Positions 1 to 6,114 of a stretch of DNA of 64,000 bases are shown piece after piece. Location: NCBI GenBank assembly GCA_024103425.1, contig JAGFIS010000014.1, positions 2,637 through 66,636 on the forward strand, in the 5' to 3' direction. Both the position numbers and the translations under genes were made by a program. Origin of the DNA: Chitinophagaceae bacterium (lineage in GTDB: Bacteria > Bacteroidota > Bacteroidia > Chitinophagales > Chitinophagaceae). The notes under the pieces were generated by a model, which made no database searches, had not been told where the DNA came from, and worked only from the letters and a program-made list of their open reading frames with translations. Every line of letters starts with the position of its first letter. The stretch's first letter is position 1.

Positions 1-468
1 TTCCCTGATTTCTCTCATGTCTTGCACCTCTTTTTCGAGGTCGTATTCTGTACCGTCGATCAGGTGTTCGCAGAGGCGAACTGCCGATTTTGCCGCATAA
101 ACACCCACGTCTTCCTCCATATAATCGAAGATGACGAAGTACTCGCCGGGCTTCCCCGTTCCTCTCGTTCTTCCGAAACCCATATCCATCCCTGCAAGGG
201 TCTGCAACTCAAGCGCTACGTGCTCGATGACGTGGCCCATCCAGGTGCCTTCTTCCACTCTTTTGAAGAATCCGCCCGGCACACCTTCACTGCATCTGTG
301 TTGATACAGGCCGGGAAGCAAAGCTTCTAACCGTTCTCTGAAACCTGCGATTTTGTTGGTGGGTCTTTCTTCTAAATCTTCAAGGTCCAGGGTCATCTGG
401 ATGAGCTTGGGCCTCCGGATACTCCAATAATTTGGACCACGAAGCACTCTGATGTTTACGATCTTCAT
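1..468 (-). CDS. cphA: Cyanophycin synthetase, N-terminal part (runs off the window start; not in the ORF track)
   Basis: Manual translation from the ATG at 468: MKIVNIRVLRGPNYWSIRRPKLIQMTLDLEDLEERPTNKIAGFRERLEALLPGLYQHRCSEGVPGGFFKRVEEGTWMGHVIEHVALELQTLAG. This is the characteristic CphA N-terminus, open to position 1 and divergent from a cyanophycinase. Confidence 0.9.
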   Translation of the reverse strand, partial: MKIVNIRVLRGPNYWSIRRPKLIQMTLDLEDLEERPTNKIAGFRERLEALLPGLYQHRCSEGVPGGFFKRVEEGTWMGHVIEHVALELQTLAGMDMGFGRTRGTGKPGEYFVIFDYMEEDVGVYAAKSAVRLCEHLIDGTEYDLEKEVQDMREIRE

Positions 469-636
469 TCTGAGATATTTGTTGTGGAAAAGTTTGCGGG
501 TAGAAAAATAAGAAAGAATGAAAATCTTTTCAAATAAATATTTTTTACACAATGCTTTCCTGCAGATTCCGTTACATTTGTGACTAACCTTATATAAACG
601 GAAAATACCGGCTTTGTTTCATCAAATGAAATTTTC

Positions 637-1545
637 ATGGAAGGACCTCGCGGAAAACTATTTTCAATCGGAGGAGCAGAAGATAAAGGAGTAGATTTAG
701 AGAAAGGAAAAATAGAAAGAAACAACCTCAATTTTTTTGAACTGGGCATCCTGCGCAGGCTGGTTGAAGAAGCCGGCGGAACCGAGAAGCGGATAGAAGT
801 GATTACCACGGCATCGATGATGCCCGTGGAAGTTGGTGAAAACTATCTGAATGCCTTTGGAAAGATCGGCTGTACGAATATTGGGGTGCTGCCTATCCGT
901 AACCGGACTGATGCCATGAAAGAAGAATACGTTGAGCGCATCAGAAAATGCGATGCGGTGATGTTCAGCGGCGGTAACCAGTTGCGGCTGACTTCCTGCT
1001 TCGGCGGGACGGAATTTTTGGCGATTATCCAGAACAGATATTTGAATGAAGACGGCTTCCTGATCGGCGGCACATCTGCCGGCGGTATGGCTATGAGCAA
1101 TACCATGATTTATGAGGGGAATGCTTCTACGGCTCACTTGAAAGGCCAGGTAAAGCTGACAACCGGACTGGCATTTATGAAGGATGTCATCTTCGATAGC
1201 CATTTCGAAAAGCGTGGAAGATTCGGTCGTTTGGCTCAGGCTGTAGCGAGCAATCCTTCGGCAATCGGAATCGGATTGGGTGAAGATACGGGTATGCTTA
1301 TTCGTGAAGGCAATATTATGGAAGCTGTTGGCAGCGGGCTCGTTGTAATTATTGACGGCCACGACATCCGCCATAATAACATTGCTGATATTCCAGATGG
1401 CAACCCGATAAGCGTAGAGAATATCAAGGTGCATTTTTGCGAAAAAGGAAATGGATACCTTGTCAAAGAGAGGAAATTCATCACCGATATTTCGGCCTAC
1501 CTCGAAAGGTATGAGGAGGAAGAGGTTAAAGCAAAGGCTAAATAA
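637..1545 (+). CDS. cphB: Cyanophycinase (peptidase S51)
   Basis: IGGAEDK, FSGGNQ, GTSAG nucleophile elbow, DSHF and GIGLGEDTG motifs; adjacent to cphA. Confidence 0.9.
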   Translation: MEGPRGKLFSIGGAEDKGVDLEKGKIERNNLNFFELGILRRLVEEAGGTEKRIEVITTASMMPVEVGENYLNAFGKIGCTNIGVLPIRNRTDAMKEEYVERIRKCDAVMFSGGNQLRLTSCFGGTEFLAIIQNRYLNEDGFLIGGTSAGGMAMSNTMIYEGNASTAHLKGQVKLTTGLAFMKDVIFDSHFEKRGRFGRLAQAVASNPSAIGIGLGEDTGMLIREGNIMEAVGSGLVVIIDGHDIRHNNIADIPDGNPISVENIKVHFCEKGNGYLVKERKFITDISAYLERYEEEEVKAKAK

Positions 1546-1554
1546 CCATATCTG

Positions 1555-2664
1555 TTACGTAGGATTTTTCTTCAAGACCTCATACAATAATTGTTGCTGT
1601 TTAATATAGATCGGGTCTTTTTCGCCTCTTACCATCCTTACAAAATTGATGTACCCCTTAAGGCGATTAATGAATGTTGCCTTCTGGCCTTCAGAAGGTT
1701 GCCTGTTTAATTTGAAATGTTTTTTTGCTGCTGATTCAGGACCGTTGACAGAGAGGTCATGCAGCATAGCCCTGATTTTCTTCAGTAATTTTCTGTCAAC
1801 ATTTATTTTATTATTTACTGTAAGGCCGGTTACTGTCTGCTTCCTGCCCGCATTGCGTACCCTCAGTTTTTTCTCATTGATAGCGAAATCATTTTTTCTG
1901 ATCTCATTGATGATATCCAGAATAAGGTCGGTAGATATGTGTTCTTTAGAGGAGAAAGTAAGGTCGTCAGCATAGCGCGAGTAGGAGAGTCCATGAAGAA
2001 AGGAAAATGCTTTCAGTTCCTTGTCTAACTGATAACAGATAAAATTGGATAGTACGGGAGAGCTAGGGGCTCCTGTCGGCAGATGCCCGTTGTAAGTGGT
2101 CAGCAGGGCGAGTACTGTAGCCATTTGACGGGTGAAGCCGAAGAACTCAGAGGAGAAAAGCCGGAACACTCTGTTTGCGGTAACTCGGGGGAAGAAGTCT
2201 TTCAGGTCGATGTTCAATACCGCTTTCTTTCCTGTATGTCTCTCTGCATTCGCAACGATGTTACAATTATCCTCGGTGAGGAGAGCATTGATGACAAAGC
2301 CATGAACTTCATCCGGTTTTATCCAGAAATAATAGGCCTGCAGATAATGGTTGAGCTTCTTTTGTAATTCCTTTAGTCCTTCTTCAGGAGCCAGTATTTC
2401 TCTGTATCCGCCTCTCTTTTTGGGGATTTGAAACGCTCTGTATGAAGGATAATTGATGATATGTTCCAGTTGGGACATAGGAATTTCTAAGAGACGACAA
2501 AGTTCGCCGGGAGTGCCAATCGAAAGGAAAAGAAGTGCATCCGTCTGGTATTTCTGAAACCCGGCCAGCGTGGAGGACCTGTGCTCAGGTTTCCCGAAGA
2601 AAATTTGATGCAGCCGTTTCTTTTGCATCTCAGAGATGGAGCGTATTTTTCTTACTTTCTTCAT
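1555..2664 (-). CDS. Retron-type reverse transcriptase (369 aa)
   Basis: IPKKRGGYREI, NAERH (retron region X NAxxH, aa 139-143), IDLKDFF, LPTGAPSSP, YADD (aa 231-234) and VTG (retron region Y, aa 278-280). No maturase/endonuclease or Cas1 domain seen. Confidence 0.92.
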   Translation of the reverse strand: MKKVRKIRSISEMQKKRLHQIFFGKPEHRSSTLAGFQKYQTDALLFLSIGTPGELCRLLEIPMSQLEHIINYPSYRAFQIPKKRGGYREILAPEEGLKELQKKLNHYLQAYYFWIKPDEVHGFVINALLTEDNCNIVANAERHTGKKAVLNIDLKDFFPRVTANRVFRLFSSEFFGFTRQMATVLALLTTYNGHLPTGAPSSPVLSNFICYQLDKELKAFSFLHGLSYSRYADDLTFSSKEHISTDLILDIINEIRKNDFAINEKKLRVRNAGRKQTVTGLTVNNKINVDRKLLKKIRAMLHDLSVNGPESAAKKHFKLNRQPSEGQKATFINRLKGYINFVRMVRGEKDPIYIKQQQLLYEVLKKNPT

Positions 2665-2679
2665 GGCTGATAAATAAGA

Positions 2680-2845
2680 GAGCCGCTGTCCCGATTATCT
2701 TTGAAAACTTTCGCTATTGATGAGAGCGCAGCGAAGCGAGCACCGATAGCAATAGCGGAATGACTTCGCCCGTTTTCTCATGGGTTGCAGGAACACAACC
2801 GCCTTGTCTTTACAGTTTGACAACATAATTTTAAGGCAGCGGCTC
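2680..2845 (-). ncRNA. Candidate retron ncRNA (msr-msd)
   Basis: Terminal inverted repeats GAGCCGCTG (2845-2837 on minus) and CAGCGGCTC (2688-2680). Two small msr-like stem-loops (2804-2823, 2783-2800) and a long msd-like hairpin (2709-2760). Lies directly upstream of the RT start. Confidence 0.8.
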
Positions 2846-2853
2846 AATATTTT

Positions 2854-3903
2854 TTATTCAAAAGGATTGTCTAACTCATCCAGTCTTTTTTGAATGACAA
2901 ACAAATCTCTTTTTTCTTCTTTATAATCATAGAAACAGGTAAACTCTTCATCTGCCTTCAATATCACCTTACCCGCCTTTCCGTTTCTGTTCTTTGCAAA
3001 GATGATTTCAACTTTTCTTTCCGTATCATTCCCAAATTCGTCTAAAGCATAACCGTAGTATTCGGGGCGATAGAGCAGCAGCACCTTATCTGCATCCTGC
3101 TCGATAGCGCCACTGTCTCTGAGGTCAGACGGTATCGGCCGCTGACCTGTCTGGGTGCGGTACTCGGCAGCACGGCTTAGTTGGCTTAAGGCTATGACAC
3201 ATACATTAAGGTCTCTGGCAATGTTCTTCAGTTCGCGTGTGATATAACCGATTTCTATCTCCCGGTTATGCCGGTATCTGTTGGTGCTCATCATTTGCAG
3301 ATAGTCGACTATTATCACTTCTACTCCGTTTTCCTCTGCCTGTTTCCGGCATTCATTCTTTAATGCTTGTACAGAGTAATTACAAGTGTTGTTAATAAAT
3401 ATTTTTTTATCCTGAAACTCTTTTAAAACATCTCTCAGAGATTTTGCAGCATCTTCCGGGTAGCTGCCATCCAAAATTTGATTTACGGGTATGCCTGACA
3501 GACAGGATATAAATCGCTGAGCCAAGAGTGTGTCTGAAAGGTCAAACGTAAAATACAGTACCGGTGCCCGGTCTGCAATGTTAAGTGCCAGGTTGACCAT
3601 CAGTTGTGTCTTGCCCATGGCGGGCCTGCCTCCGAGTACTACTAATTCGCCCCGGGCTAACCCGCTGTAGTTTTCATCAAAGTCTTTGAACCCGGTGGTA
3701 ATGATATCCCTCCCCTGTTCTCCCTTTTCAAGTCGTTGAATATTCTCCGCCACCAGGGTACTTATAGGAACGGATTCTCCGATTTCCTTTGCAAACAATT
3801 CGTTGTTGAGCAGCAGCTGTCTCAAATGCAGAATTAATTCTACCTCAGAAAGGGACGGGTTTTCAATCAGGTTTTCAATTCTCTTTTTAATACCGGGTGT
3901 CAT
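2854..3903 (-). CDS. DnaB-like helicase, C-terminal RecA domain only (349 aa), putative retron partner
   Basis: Walker A GRPAMGKT, Walker B IIVDYLQ, ALSQLSR, DLRDSGAIEQDAD and AKNRNG finger. Lacks the N-terminal primase-binding domain. H1a reads FTFDLS instead of FSLEMS. Confidence 0.85.
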   Translation of the reverse strand: MTPGIKKRIENLIENPSLSEVELILHLRQLLLNNELFAKEIGESVPISTLVAENIQRLEKGEQGRDIITTGFKDFDENYSGLARGELVVLGGRPAMGKTQLMVNLALNIADRAPVLYFTFDLSDTLLAQRFISCLSGIPVNQILDGSYPEDAAKSLRDVLKEFQDKKIFINNTCNYSVQALKNECRKQAEENGVEVIIVDYLQMMSTNRYRHNREIEIGYITRELKNIARDLNVCVIALSQLSRAAEYRTQTGQRPIPSDLRDSGAIEQDADKVLLLYRPEYYGYALDEFGNDTERKVEIIFAKNRNGKAGKVILKADEEFTCFYDYKEEKRDLFVIQKRLDELDNPFE

Positions 3904-4042
3904 GCGATAAAGTTAACCCAAAGACCGGGTATTTTTATTAACATTTCCGGAATACAATCAACAATCTATACTCCTGCGTATGTGGAAAAACGAAAATGGA
4001 GAATGAATTTCTGCAGACCGGTAAAAATGAATTTGTGTAAAA

Positions 4043-4897
4043 TTAGAAGACCCCCTTTGCAAAGGTGTTACCCTGATTCAGATCGCCTGTTTCGAATCCT
4101 TTTTTGAACCAATACATTCTCTGTTCAGAAGTTCCATGGGTAAAGGAGTCGGGGGTTACAGTACCCTGATATTTTTTTTGCAGCCGGTCATCTCCGATGG
4201 CATTGGCAGCTTCAAGGGCTTCGCGGATGTCCTGAGCGTGGATAACATTTTTCATCTTCTGATTATAATGCGCCCATATTCCGGCGTAGAAATCGGCTTG
4301 TAACTCTAGTCTTACGCTGTATTTATTGTATTCAGTTTCTGAAACCTGTCCCCTGATTTGGTTCATCTTTTCAGTAAGACCTAGTAGATCCTGTACATGG
4401 TGCCCGATTTCGTGTGCAATAACATAGGCCATTGCAAAGTCTCCCTTTACACCGAACTCCTGCTTCAATTGTTGTGCGAAAGAGAGGTCAATATATACTT
4501 GCTTATCGGCAGGGCAATAAAATGGGCCGGTAGCCGCAGTAGCCCCGCCACATGCAGAAGTGGTACTACCTCTGAACATTACGAGGGTAGGCTCCTGATA
4601 GGTGCGCCCCATCTGGCGGAAAAGTTCGTTCCACACGTCTTCGGTATCTGCCAGTACTACTTTCACGAAGGCAGCCTCTTCTTCGTCGGCGGCCTCTTGT
4701 TCGGGGGTCATTGTAGTCTGCCCGAAACCATCCGGCGGGAAAAGCTGCTGGAGATCATTGATATCACCACCACCTAAAAAGAGTTGTGCGAAGATGAATA
4801 ACAGTCCGATGATACCGCCACCTAACGCCAATCCGCCGCCGCTGATGGCTCTCCTGTCGTCGACATTGCTGCTCTCCCTGCGTCCTTTCCAGTCCAT
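4043..4897 (-). CDS. Neutral zinc metallopeptidase (YpfJ family)
   Basis: N-terminal GRRESSNVDDRR, Gly-rich TM segment, GPFYCPAD, AHEIGHHVQ (HExxH), ELQADFYAG, FTHGTSEQR. Confidence 0.9.
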   Translation of the reverse strand: MDWKGRRESSNVDDRRAISGGGLALGGGIIGLLFIFAQLFLGGGDINDLQQLFPPDGFGQTTMTPEQEAADEEEAAFVKVVLADTEDVWNELFRQMGRTYQEPTLVMFRGSTTSACGGATAATGPFYCPADKQVYIDLSFAQQLKQEFGVKGDFAMAYVIAHEIGHHVQDLLGLTEKMNQIRGQVSETEYNKYSVRLELQADFYAGIWAHYNQKMKNVIHAQDIREALEAANAIGDDRLQKKYQGTVTPDSFTHGTSEQRMYWFKKGFETGDLNQGNTFAKGVF

Positions 4898-5160
4898 AAC
4901 GTTGAATTAAAGAGGTAATTGAAAGTTCAAATATATCTTATTTTAAAAAAAACTAATCAGGGCTTTGCTCCCGGTACCGAACCGGGCTGCACAAAATATT
5001 CTAAGCCCCGGACCCTGTGAATGCCCTTTTCGGGGTTTAAAAAAGGTTAAAAAAGCCGGCCATTATTTTTTCGAGTCAATTTTTATATAGATTATCAATG
5101 AGTTATGAAGGTGCGATAAAAAAAGTGCCCAAAAATCATACGAATGAGAGAAAGCAATCA

Positions 5161-5168
5161 TACCTTTG
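5161..5168 (+). promoter_or_regulatory. Bacteroidota -7 promoter element (TACCTTTG) for the rplM operon
   Basis: Exact TAnnTTTG match ~70 nt upstream of rplM; no clear -33 TTTG seen. Confidence 0.65.
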
Positions 5169-5238
5169 CACTCCTTTTTAAAAATGCCGGGTTAGCGGCA
5201 TTAGTTTTCACCGGCAGCAATGCCAAATAAAAAACAAA

Positions 5239-5694
5239 ATGAGTAAACTACATTTCACAACAAAACATGCGAACGAGGCTGGCATACAGCGCAACTGGTA
5301 TGTTGTAGACGCCACTAATCAAACCGTAGGCCGCATGTGTGCAAGAATTGCATCTGTTCTTCGCGGAAAGAACAAGGCCTATTATACTCCACACGTAGAT
5401 TGCGGAGATTATGTAATCGTGGTAAATGCGGAGAAAGTAAAATTCACCGGAAACAAACTGGATGAAAAGGAATACCTGACTTACAGCGGTTATCCCGGAG
5501 GCCAGAAGCGTGTTATCGCTGCAGATCTGCAGGCAAGACGCCCCGAAGTAATTATCGAAAGAGCAGTAAAAGGAATGCTTCCTAAAAACCGTTTGGGACG
5601 TAAGATGTTCAAAAAACTGTTTGTTTATGCAGGCAATGAACATCCGCATACAGCTCAGAATCCTCAACCATTAATCACTCAAAAACAAGGGTAG
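5239..5694 (+). CDS. rplM: 50S ribosomal protein L13
   Basis: [41 protein letters not shown]. Confidence 0.98.
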
Positions 5695-5724
5695 TAAGTT
5701 ATTACCCGTTAATAATATTGTACA

Positions 5725-6114
5725 ATGGAAAAACAGAATAACGCAACCGGTCGCAGAAAAGAAGCCGTAACACGTGTATTTATCAAGAGTGGCAAAGGAA
5801 GTATTACTGTAAACGGTAAAGATTACAAAACATACTTTCCGCTGATGTACTTACAGAATCAGTTGGAACTCCCTCTTAAGACTGTAGAATCTCTGGACAA
5901 ATTCGATATAGTTATCAACGCCACCGGCGGGGGGGCTAAAGGGCAGGCAGAAGCTGCAAAACTCGGAATTGCCCGCGCATTGATTAGTGTAAACCCTGAG
6001 TTCAGGCCGGTACTTAAAGATGCCGGATTACTGACAAGAGATCCCAGAAGCGTGGAGAGAAAGAAACCCGGTCAGAAGAAAGCAAGAAAGAGCTTCCAGT
6101 TCTCTAAAAGATAA
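5725..6114 (+). CDS. rpsI: 30S ribosomal protein S9
   Basis: ATGRRKEAV start, C-terminal RKKPGQKKARKSFQFSKR. Confidence 0.98.
   Translation: MEKQNNATGRRKEAVTRVFIKSGKGSITVNGKDYKTYFPLMYLQNQLELPLKTVESLDKFDIVINATGGGAKGQAEAAKLGIARALISVNPEFRPVLKDAGLLTRDPRSVERKKPGQKKARKSFQFSKR

Follow-up and report, generated by a model that had tools for sequence, protein, structure and literature searches.

A Chitinophagaceae cassette of a truncated DnaB-like gene, an msr/msd-type RNA and a reverse transcriptase as a very probable member of a protease-less, type XI-like retron lineage

Retrons serve as phage-defence systems and as genome-editing tools, and each new class of retron effector has revealed another way of killing or arresting infected cells. 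Here, we describe a retron-type cassette found in a 64,000-nt stretch of the genome of a Chitinophagaceae bacterium (GenBank assembly GCA_024103425.1, contig JAGFIS010000014.1, positions 2,637 to 66,636 of the forward strand; the whole stretch is referred to as the window, and coordinates count from its first letter). The cassette consists of a DnaB-like gene, an msr/msd-type non-coding RNA (ncRNA) and a retron reverse transcriptase (RT) gene, arranged in that order on the minus strand throughout and occupying about 2.35 kb. Among the described retrons, type XI was listed by Mestre et al. in 2020 as an RT fused to a protease, with no ncRNA that could be recognised, in a main text with 0 mentions of “helicase” (PMC7736814). 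A nearer counterpart is the computational candidate lineage TXI_noncan_h reported by Toro in 2026 in mSystems (PMC13712802; bioRxiv 10.64898/2026.05.14.725207), in which type XI-like RTs that lack a protease are joined with DnaB_C.

The published lineage comprises 29 curated loci, 20 of them with DnaB_C, and corresponds to RT clade 8; its a1/a2 ncRNA lies 22–104 bp upstream of the RT and is modelled as a “double stem-loop” with 23 pairs, Bacillota are among its hosts, and CRISPR-Cas genes (Cas1/Cas2) are occasional neighbours (PMC13712802). The +1/-1 neighbour offsets in that work run by genome coordinates and not by strand (PMC13712802), so the DnaB gene of the window would be its “+1”, and the position given there as “mostly downstream” fits a uniform order with DnaB upstream. 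A first-pass annotation, made from the letters of the window, had proposed the cassette as a candidate new retron system. This claim of novelty falls, as the architecture is already catalogued as TXI_noncan_h (PMC13712802). What stands of that interpretation is a retron with an obligate, co-evolving truncated-DnaB partner, organised as one tight conserved unit.

The DnaB-like gene (2854..3903, minus strand, 349 aa, Pfam DnaB_C) ends in a stop codon at 2856-2854, and the 5′ arm of the ncRNA begins 8 nt later. The ncRNA extends over 166 nt from the first base of its 5′ arm to the last base of its 3′ arm (2680..2845, minus strand). The ATG of the RT (2664) is located 15 nt past the 3′ arm, and the spacer from the DnaB-like stop to the RT start measures 189 nt. 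The RT gene (1555..2664, minus strand, 369 aa) stands alone, without a protease fusion, and is assigned to a type XI-like clade by PADLOC and the RT tree. The three co-oriented, tightly packed elements of the first-pass annotation, together with the distances it gave, proved exact to the base on the minus strand.

The same arrangement was observed well beyond the window. A survey of species-representative genomes returned the 46 closest RT homologues (43–62% identity), 43 of them with readable upstream sequence, and a DnaB-like gene lies directly upstream on the same strand in all 43. Counting the upstream neighbours of RT homologues, a check named in the first-pass annotation, bore out the linkage, with the ncRNA between the two genes. 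The DnaB-RT spacer is mostly 170–210 nt in the homologous loci; gene order and this spacer recur in about 90 species-level genomes, and the order DnaB-like gene, ncRNA, RT holds in every carrier genome readable on both sides. RTs below about 43% identity have no DnaB-like neighbour, with the exception of two Bacillota/Mycoplasmatota loci, where the DnaB-like match is at 27%. Viewed from the other partner, an RT lies downstream at 71 of the 80 closest DnaB-like loci; at 2 the contig ends too early, and the remaining 7 are without an RT (71/78). By tree, these seven divide into four housekeeping-type DnaB genes and three retron-type orphans. The orphans (loci L103, L134 and L142 of our collection), with no RT in the available downstream sequence, may be orphaned or decayed cassettes.

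Furthermore, pairwise distances between RTs correlate with those between DnaB-like proteins (r = 0.83; Mantel test, 0/999). Reciprocal linkage (43/43 and 71/78) and this correlation rule out a chance adjacency of unrelated genes. Clustering of all flanking open reading frames (ORFs) revealed no third conserved gene, the commonest cluster being present in 14 of 93 loci. The data support the trio as one tight conserved unit with an obligate, co-evolving DnaB-family ATPase that lacks the N-terminal domain.

The RT matches Pfam RVT_1 (E = 1.4e-20) and carries the NAxxH, VTG and YADD motifs named in the first-pass annotation, as NAERH at 2250-2236 (aa 139-143), YADD at 1974-1963 (aa 231-234) and VTG at 1833-1825 (aa 278-280), all on the minus strand. 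Its best PADLOC match is RT-Protease_XI (1.8e-98), covering profile positions 6-315 of 506, which is the RT part only; the next models, RT-TIR_XII and RT-Toprim_I-C, are again matched over the RT part only, and retron RT models make up all of the best 25 of 67 PADLOC matches. In the RT tree, a clade with 99% support unites 101 RTs, consisting of 93 with a DnaB-like gene upstream, 1 at a contig edge and a 7-member subclade, with RT-trypsin fusions (canonical type XI; locus L079 among the nearest) and RT-TIR fusions as outgroups. PADLOC and the tree, both named beforehand as checks, agree in that retron RT models fit best and that the RT of the window falls inside this DnaB-linked clade. Taken together, the cassette is very probably a member of a protease-less, DnaB_C-associated, type XI-like retron lineage.

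Several relatives of this RT were recorded in addition. The 7-member sister subclade consists of stand-alone RTs without a DnaB partner (L063, L054, L057, L058, L069, L071 and L074), and the covariance model for the ncRNA, described below, finds no retron RNA at these seven loci. At one of them (L063:5025-8552), two ORFs after the RT, 328 aa and 100 aa long, appear Cas1- and Cas2-like by eye. In two metagenome-assembled genomes (MAGs), one labelled Bacilli (L059:4109-5972) and the other “Tenericutes” (L073:3232-5069), the gene immediately upstream of a retron RT is a shorter and much more distant DnaB-like gene (27% identity). A quick tree places RTs of this type beside an RT-trypsin fusion and apart from the main Bacteroidota clade, which could be a second origin of the DnaB-RT pairing or a rooting problem. 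The genome of the window also encodes a second retron-type RT on another contig (C11; L172:1348-2637, minus strand), of 429 aa and 38% identical to the RT described here. It is followed by a 424-aa ORF (60-1334, minus strand) of no assigned function, and the two probably form a second, different retron.

Alignment of 34 spacers showed that the RNA is conserved in sequence and structure. It is closed by an inverted repeat in which the 5′ arm GAGCCGCUG (2837..2845, minus strand) is the perfect 9-nt complement of the 3′ arm CAGCGGCUC (2680..2688, minus strand). The closing helix has 9-10 pairs across homologues, and 8 of 10 pairs show changes on both sides. Beyond an internal loop, UUAU (2828-2825) pairs with AUAA (2698-2695) in a helix that is 100% paired and is followed by G2824 (element 2824..2828, minus strand); the corresponding alignment positions T29, T30, A31, T32 and G33 (UUAU-G) are invariant in the 34 sequences. 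In studied retrons the branching G occupies the matching position, where the closing stem ends; by analogy, G2824 is a candidate for the guanosine that primes through its 2′-OH. Two stem-loops follow in the msr part. The first, UUGUC ... GACAA (2804..2823, minus strand), changes on both sides in 5 of 5 pairs, and the second, GGUUGUGUUCCUGCAACC (2783..2800, minus strand), is nearly invariant, with 97% pairing and 2 pairs changed on both sides. For msr and closing stem together, paired cells amount to 96%, and both partners have changed in 15 pairs; none of 500 shuffles equals this result, and slid controls are 27–51% paired.

The variable msd (template) region would cover about 84 nt (2699..2782, minus strand; limits inferred) and contains two crossing helices. 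Helix A is formed by AUGAGA (2781-2776) and UCUCAU (2725-2720), with an additional inner GC-rich part, and helix B by UUCCGCUAUUG (2760-2750) and CAAUAGCGAAA (2719-2709), all on the minus strand. Both covary (77% paired against 40–49% in slid controls; both-side changes in 18 of 22 pairs; 0/500 shuffles), and folding of the individual msd sequences gives long hairpins in nearly all homologues. As the helices cross, they represent either a pseudoknot or alternative conformers of the RNA and the DNA. A U-rich tract (2679-2671) comes after the 3′ arm, with alignment positions T180-T182 conserved in at least 90%. The covariance model (R1), derived from this alignment, scores the RNA of the window at 151.5 bits (E = 7.5e-24). 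It matches all DnaB+RT loci (45 + 68), always between both genes on the coding strand, and has 0 matches among 34 loci with other RT types. In a scan of window positions 1-6000, Rfam has no family for the intergenic RNA; the sole match, a sub-threshold ylbH hit inside the DnaB-like gene, was taken as chance.

In the DnaB-like protein, Pfam identifies DnaB_C at residues 68-325 (E = 1.4e-77) and nothing N-terminal to it. Alignment to solved DnaB C-terminal domains starts at about their residue 170 (5e-47) and covers the linker helix and the RecA-fold domain. The helicase is thus truncated, as the first-pass annotation had read it, with DnaB_C matched and the N-terminal DnaB domain absent. An AlphaFold2 model (pLDDT, the predicted local distance difference test score, 87.5) has as its best Foldseek matches the DnaB hexamer chains 9dls, 7t22 and 4esv (E = 1e-29 to 1e-30). 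Along the minus strand, the protein displays a Walker A motif GRPAMGKT (3630-3607), FTFDLS (3552-3535) in place of the DnaB “SLEM” motif, a Walker B motif IIVDYLQ (3315-3295), ALSQLSR (3192-3172), a DLRDSG loop (3126-3109), AKNRNG (2997-2980) and an acidic C-terminal tail ending ...LDNPFE (2868-2857). On the basis of known DnaB structures, we take these motifs to serve in nucleotide binding, contact with single-stranded DNA (ssDNA) and as arginine finger. The SLEM motif reads FDLS, which places Asp121 at the position of the catalytic Glu. The protein accordingly departs from a functional DnaB in two respects, namely the missing N-terminal domain and the Asp for the catalytic Glu.

These features extend to the family. 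All 83 full-length members measure 320-389 aa, so that the N-terminal domain is missing in every one of them. The Walker A Lys is kept in 82 members, the Walker B Asp in 83 and the Arg of the DLR loop in 82, while the catalytic position holds Asp in 64, Glu in 18 and Asn in 1. In 62 of 83 members, the C-terminus is acidic and its last residues are ...PF.

The mechanism suggested in the first-pass annotation, with the helicase held inactive by the RT and its multicopy single-stranded DNA (msDNA), to be released by a phage, is plausible. In studied retrons the accessory protein is the toxin, and on this pattern RT-msDNA would be the antitoxin and the DnaB-like protein the toxin. The RT would prime on the 2′-OH of G2824 and copy approximately 2699-2782 into an msDNA of about 80 nt, and RT-msDNA would bind the DnaB-like protein and keep it harmless. 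If the msDNA were degraded, modified or coated by some phage factor, this protein would be freed and could then act as a defective look-alike of the host helicase, entering or competing with DnaB rings or partners. Without the N-terminal domain it would be unable to bind primase, and with the catalytic Glu replaced by Asp it would probably hydrolyse nucleoside triphosphates (NTPs) poorly. Stalled replication would finally abort the infection. As a whole, a tripartite defence retron in which RT-msDNA restrains a DnaB-like effector that mimics the host helicase is our best explanation, held with moderate confidence. Its parts differ in weight: an anti-phage function appears fairly probable, and poisoning of replication by helicase mimicry is a tentative proposal held with low confidence.

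A different role for the same partner would be that of a helper, in which the DnaB-like ATPase assists the biogenesis or use of msDNA by unwinding the RNA/DNA hybrid, threading or hand-over, and the function need not be abortive infection. Strict co-occurrence and co-evolution fit any obligate partnership, this one included, and 82 of 83 members retain the ssDNA-contact loop DLR(E/D)SG. Against this, no helicase is involved when other retron RTs produce msDNA, neither the sister RT subclade nor the type XI, XII and I-C relatives have a DnaB partner, and the sporadic, island-like distribution suggests defence. We consider a helper role improbable.

The restrained-effector explanation can be examined further through the relation of the protein to the helicase of its host. 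The genome encodes its own full-length DnaB of 498 aa on a separate contig (C25; L081:1414-2910, minus strand), and all 16 genomes checked have a full-length DnaB besides the DnaB-like protein. The DnaB-like protein is 34% identical to the DnaB of its own host over the shared domain. Phage DnaB helicases (~38% identity) are no closer to it than host DnaB, and the retron DnaB-like group lies outside the housekeeping DnaB clade, which has 100% support; read without a root, this tree points to no particular donor. In 28 of 30 genomes sampled across Bacteroidota (L202-L231), housekeeping DnaB carries a C-terminal extension that is acidic and ends in ...PF, with ...NYDEDSPF as the tail of the DnaB from the genome of the window. 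This tail resembles the C-terminal tip of the single-stranded DNA-binding protein SSB, and we know of no description of such an extension on the housekeeping DnaB of Bacteroidota.

We also compared each retron DnaB-like protein with the housekeeping DnaB of the same genome, searching 16 genomes and scoring 15 pairs. Same-genome identity was 37.4%, against 35.1% across genomes (0/9999 permutations, row and column effects removed). Without the subclade closest to DnaB, the values were 36.1% and 34.6% (0/9999 permutations). The excess is concentrated in two loops, at approximately window residues 248-252 and 284-292. It is conceivable, if doubtful, that the protein is a DnaB paralogue tailored to the helicase of its own host, through the ...PF tail, host-matched loops, an intact subunit interface, the missing primase-binding domain and a weakened catalytic residue, and that, once a phage disturbs RT-msDNA, it joins the replisome helicase or competes with it and freezes replication.

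The same tailored features would equally suit a bait for phage helicase loaders. This is the main rival, a decoy or guard model in which the DnaB-like protein is a sensor imitating the host helicase, and binding of a phage loader or inhibitor alters the RT-msDNA complex or the state of the ATPase and triggers growth arrest via the ATPase or the RT. In its favour are the host-like acidic ...PF tail and the same-genome resemblance in two loops, the latter being what would be expected of bait for host-specific binders, and ATP-binding motifs that are kept beside a catalytic Glu that is mostly Asp fit a switch. Phage lambda P and the DnaC/DciA loaders moreover bind the C-terminal tier of DnaB, according to the titles of the fold matches 9oa1, 6bbm, 6kza and 8a3v. 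Set against this model are a two-protein system without a separate output domain, the role of the accessory protein as toxin in studied retrons, and the protein of the window itself, which has no host-specific resemblance. We regard the decoy model as unlikely, with the helper and mobile-element readings less likely again.

Returning to an effector restrained by RT-msDNA, several observations weigh against it. Asp in place of Glu retains the carboxylate, and the ATPase may therefore be fully active. The protein of the window ends in ...PFE rather than ...PF, and its own pair shows no same-genome excess (33.7% against a row mean of 34.0%), so that the argument for mimicry rests on the family and not on the locus of the window. 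The excess itself is small and could owe something to gene conversion or to a common amino-acid composition. PADLOC, which has no model for the DnaB-like protein, returns mad8 as a sole, weak match (1.8e-08). In addition, with the 5′ arm only 8 nt past the stop codon, the RNA has to arise either from a promoter located within the DnaB-like gene or, by processing, from a longer transcript. The Bacteroidota -7 motif TAnnTTTG is found on the minus strand neither near 2846-2930 nor upstream of 3903, and across 83 loci neither TAnnTTTG nor TTTG favours any particular distance ahead of the 5′ arm.

The hosts of the cassette are overwhelmingly Bacteroidota, and cultured carriers include Flavobacterium branchiophilum NBRC 15030, Bergeyella porcorum CECT 9006 and Flavobacteria bacterium BAL38. 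Within the closer relatives of the window, the distribution is sparse. The cassette was not found by DNA in 18 genomes of the same genus, and among 120 other genomes of the family the RT was detected in 2, once as a close homologue (53% identity) and once as a 40% match of another type. No synteny of the cassette flanks was observed in other genomes. No clean empty site could be identified, as the cyanophycinase and zinc peptidase genes that flank the cassette lie on different contigs or far apart in the 18 congeners. This patchy, context-free distribution appears typical of defence cassettes.

A quite different origin for such a pair would be a replication module of a mobile element, with helicase and RT replicating a phage satellite, plasmid or integrative element. 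DnaB-like helicases at ~38% identity are indeed common in phage replication modules. The cassette, in turn, is a 2.35-kb unit among housekeeping-type genes; the window shows neither an integrase or primase nor origin-like repeats around it, no neighbour gene recurs across loci, and its retron-type RT is accompanied by an msr/msd RNA. A search of 2.9 million viral contigs yielded no close RT homologue (best 37% identity). We judge a replication module very improbable. Carriage by phages was rejected on the same absence of close RT relatives from viral contigs and on the distance of phage DnaB, which is no smaller than that of host DnaB.

Some further observations concern individual carriers. 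Two cassette copies on different contigs occur in Tannerella Gx485_bin193 (L014 and L115), Bacteroidia Deming_bin.278 (L004 and L020) and Bacteroidetes Aved MAXAC.142 (L138 and L141). Cassettes were also found in MAGs labelled Bifidobacteriaceae, Akkermansia, Candidatus Kuenenia and Bifidobacterium breve (L001/L090, L007/L136, L109, L135). These copies with off-phylum labels are near-identical to, or nested among, Bacteroidota copies, and are likely mis-binned or mislabelled contigs rather than products of inter-phylum transfer. Some neighbours of the cassette resemble WYL-type regulators by eye.

In the window, a cyanophycinase-like gene (637-1545, plus strand) converges on the cassette from one side, and on the other lies a zinc-peptidase-like gene (4043-4897, minus strand); ribosomal protein genes are found farther out. 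The elongation factor EF-Ts of this organism is 77-78% identical to its counterparts in Ginsengibacter and Hanamia, in keeping with a Chitinophagaceae bacterium. The RT stop (1555) and the convergent cyanophycinase stop (1545) are 9 nt apart. The end of a cyanophycin synthetase-like gene (1-552, minus strand) lies near the cyanophycinase-like gene.

A retron whose only partner is a cut-down replicative helicase is a good experimental target. If true, helicase mimicry would tie retron immunity directly to the replication fork and would be the first retron effector activity based on imitation of a core replication protein, as opposed to a nuclease, an NADase, membrane action or a protease. It would also provide a compact two-protein system of about 2.35 kb from Bacteroidota, where few retrons have been characterised. 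The RNA architecture, with a candidate branch G and inferred msd limits, is what is needed for the use of the system in msDNA production. Since the class has already been published as a computational candidate, the value of the window is confirmatory.

Compared with known systems, type I-A and I-B retrons employ ABC/SMC-like ATPases that act together with a nuclease domain (HNH or Toprim), whereas the cassette described here has no nuclease and its ATPase is a ring-helicase domain of RecA fold. The cassette has in common with type I-A (Ec78/Eco7 PtuA-PtuB) and type I-B (Eco8 ATPase-Toprim; compare PMC13376987) a three-part scheme of RT, msDNA, predicted in the present case, and an NTPase-bearing accessory protein that co-evolves with the RT. 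Canonical type XI provides the closest catalogued RT profile, with the RT-trypsin fusion L079 as a near outgroup. The cassette differs from it in having no protease domain, a separate ATPase partner and a clear msr/msd RNA. With replicative DnaB, the partner protein shares the linker helix, the RecA fold, Walker A and B, the ssDNA loop, AKxRNG and the Bacteroidota-type acidic ...PF tail; it differs in the loss of the ~170-residue N-terminal primase-binding/collar domain and in the Asp for the catalytic Glu in 64 of 83 members.

The closest agreement is with TXI_noncan_h. Both have a stand-alone RT with type XI as best match, a separate DnaB_C gene, immediately adjacent here and within two genes of the RT there, a candidate a1/a2 ncRNA upstream of the RT and hosts in Bacteroidota, and the Cas1/Cas2-like ORFs beside the sister-subclade RT at L063 find a parallel in the published lineage. 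From these shared features, set against the published description, we infer that the cassette of the window is a member of TXI_noncan_h. The published lineage includes Bacillota, whereas the Bacillota/Mycoplasmatota loci recorded here (L059 and L073) fall outside the main clade in a quick tree and have no match to the RNA model. What is new here is detail and confirmation for an already published computational class rather than a discovery: about 90 species genomes are set beside 29 loci with 20 DnaB_C, and the published RNA model gains an invariant extension, UUAU-G/AUAA, as well as two msd helices that cross.

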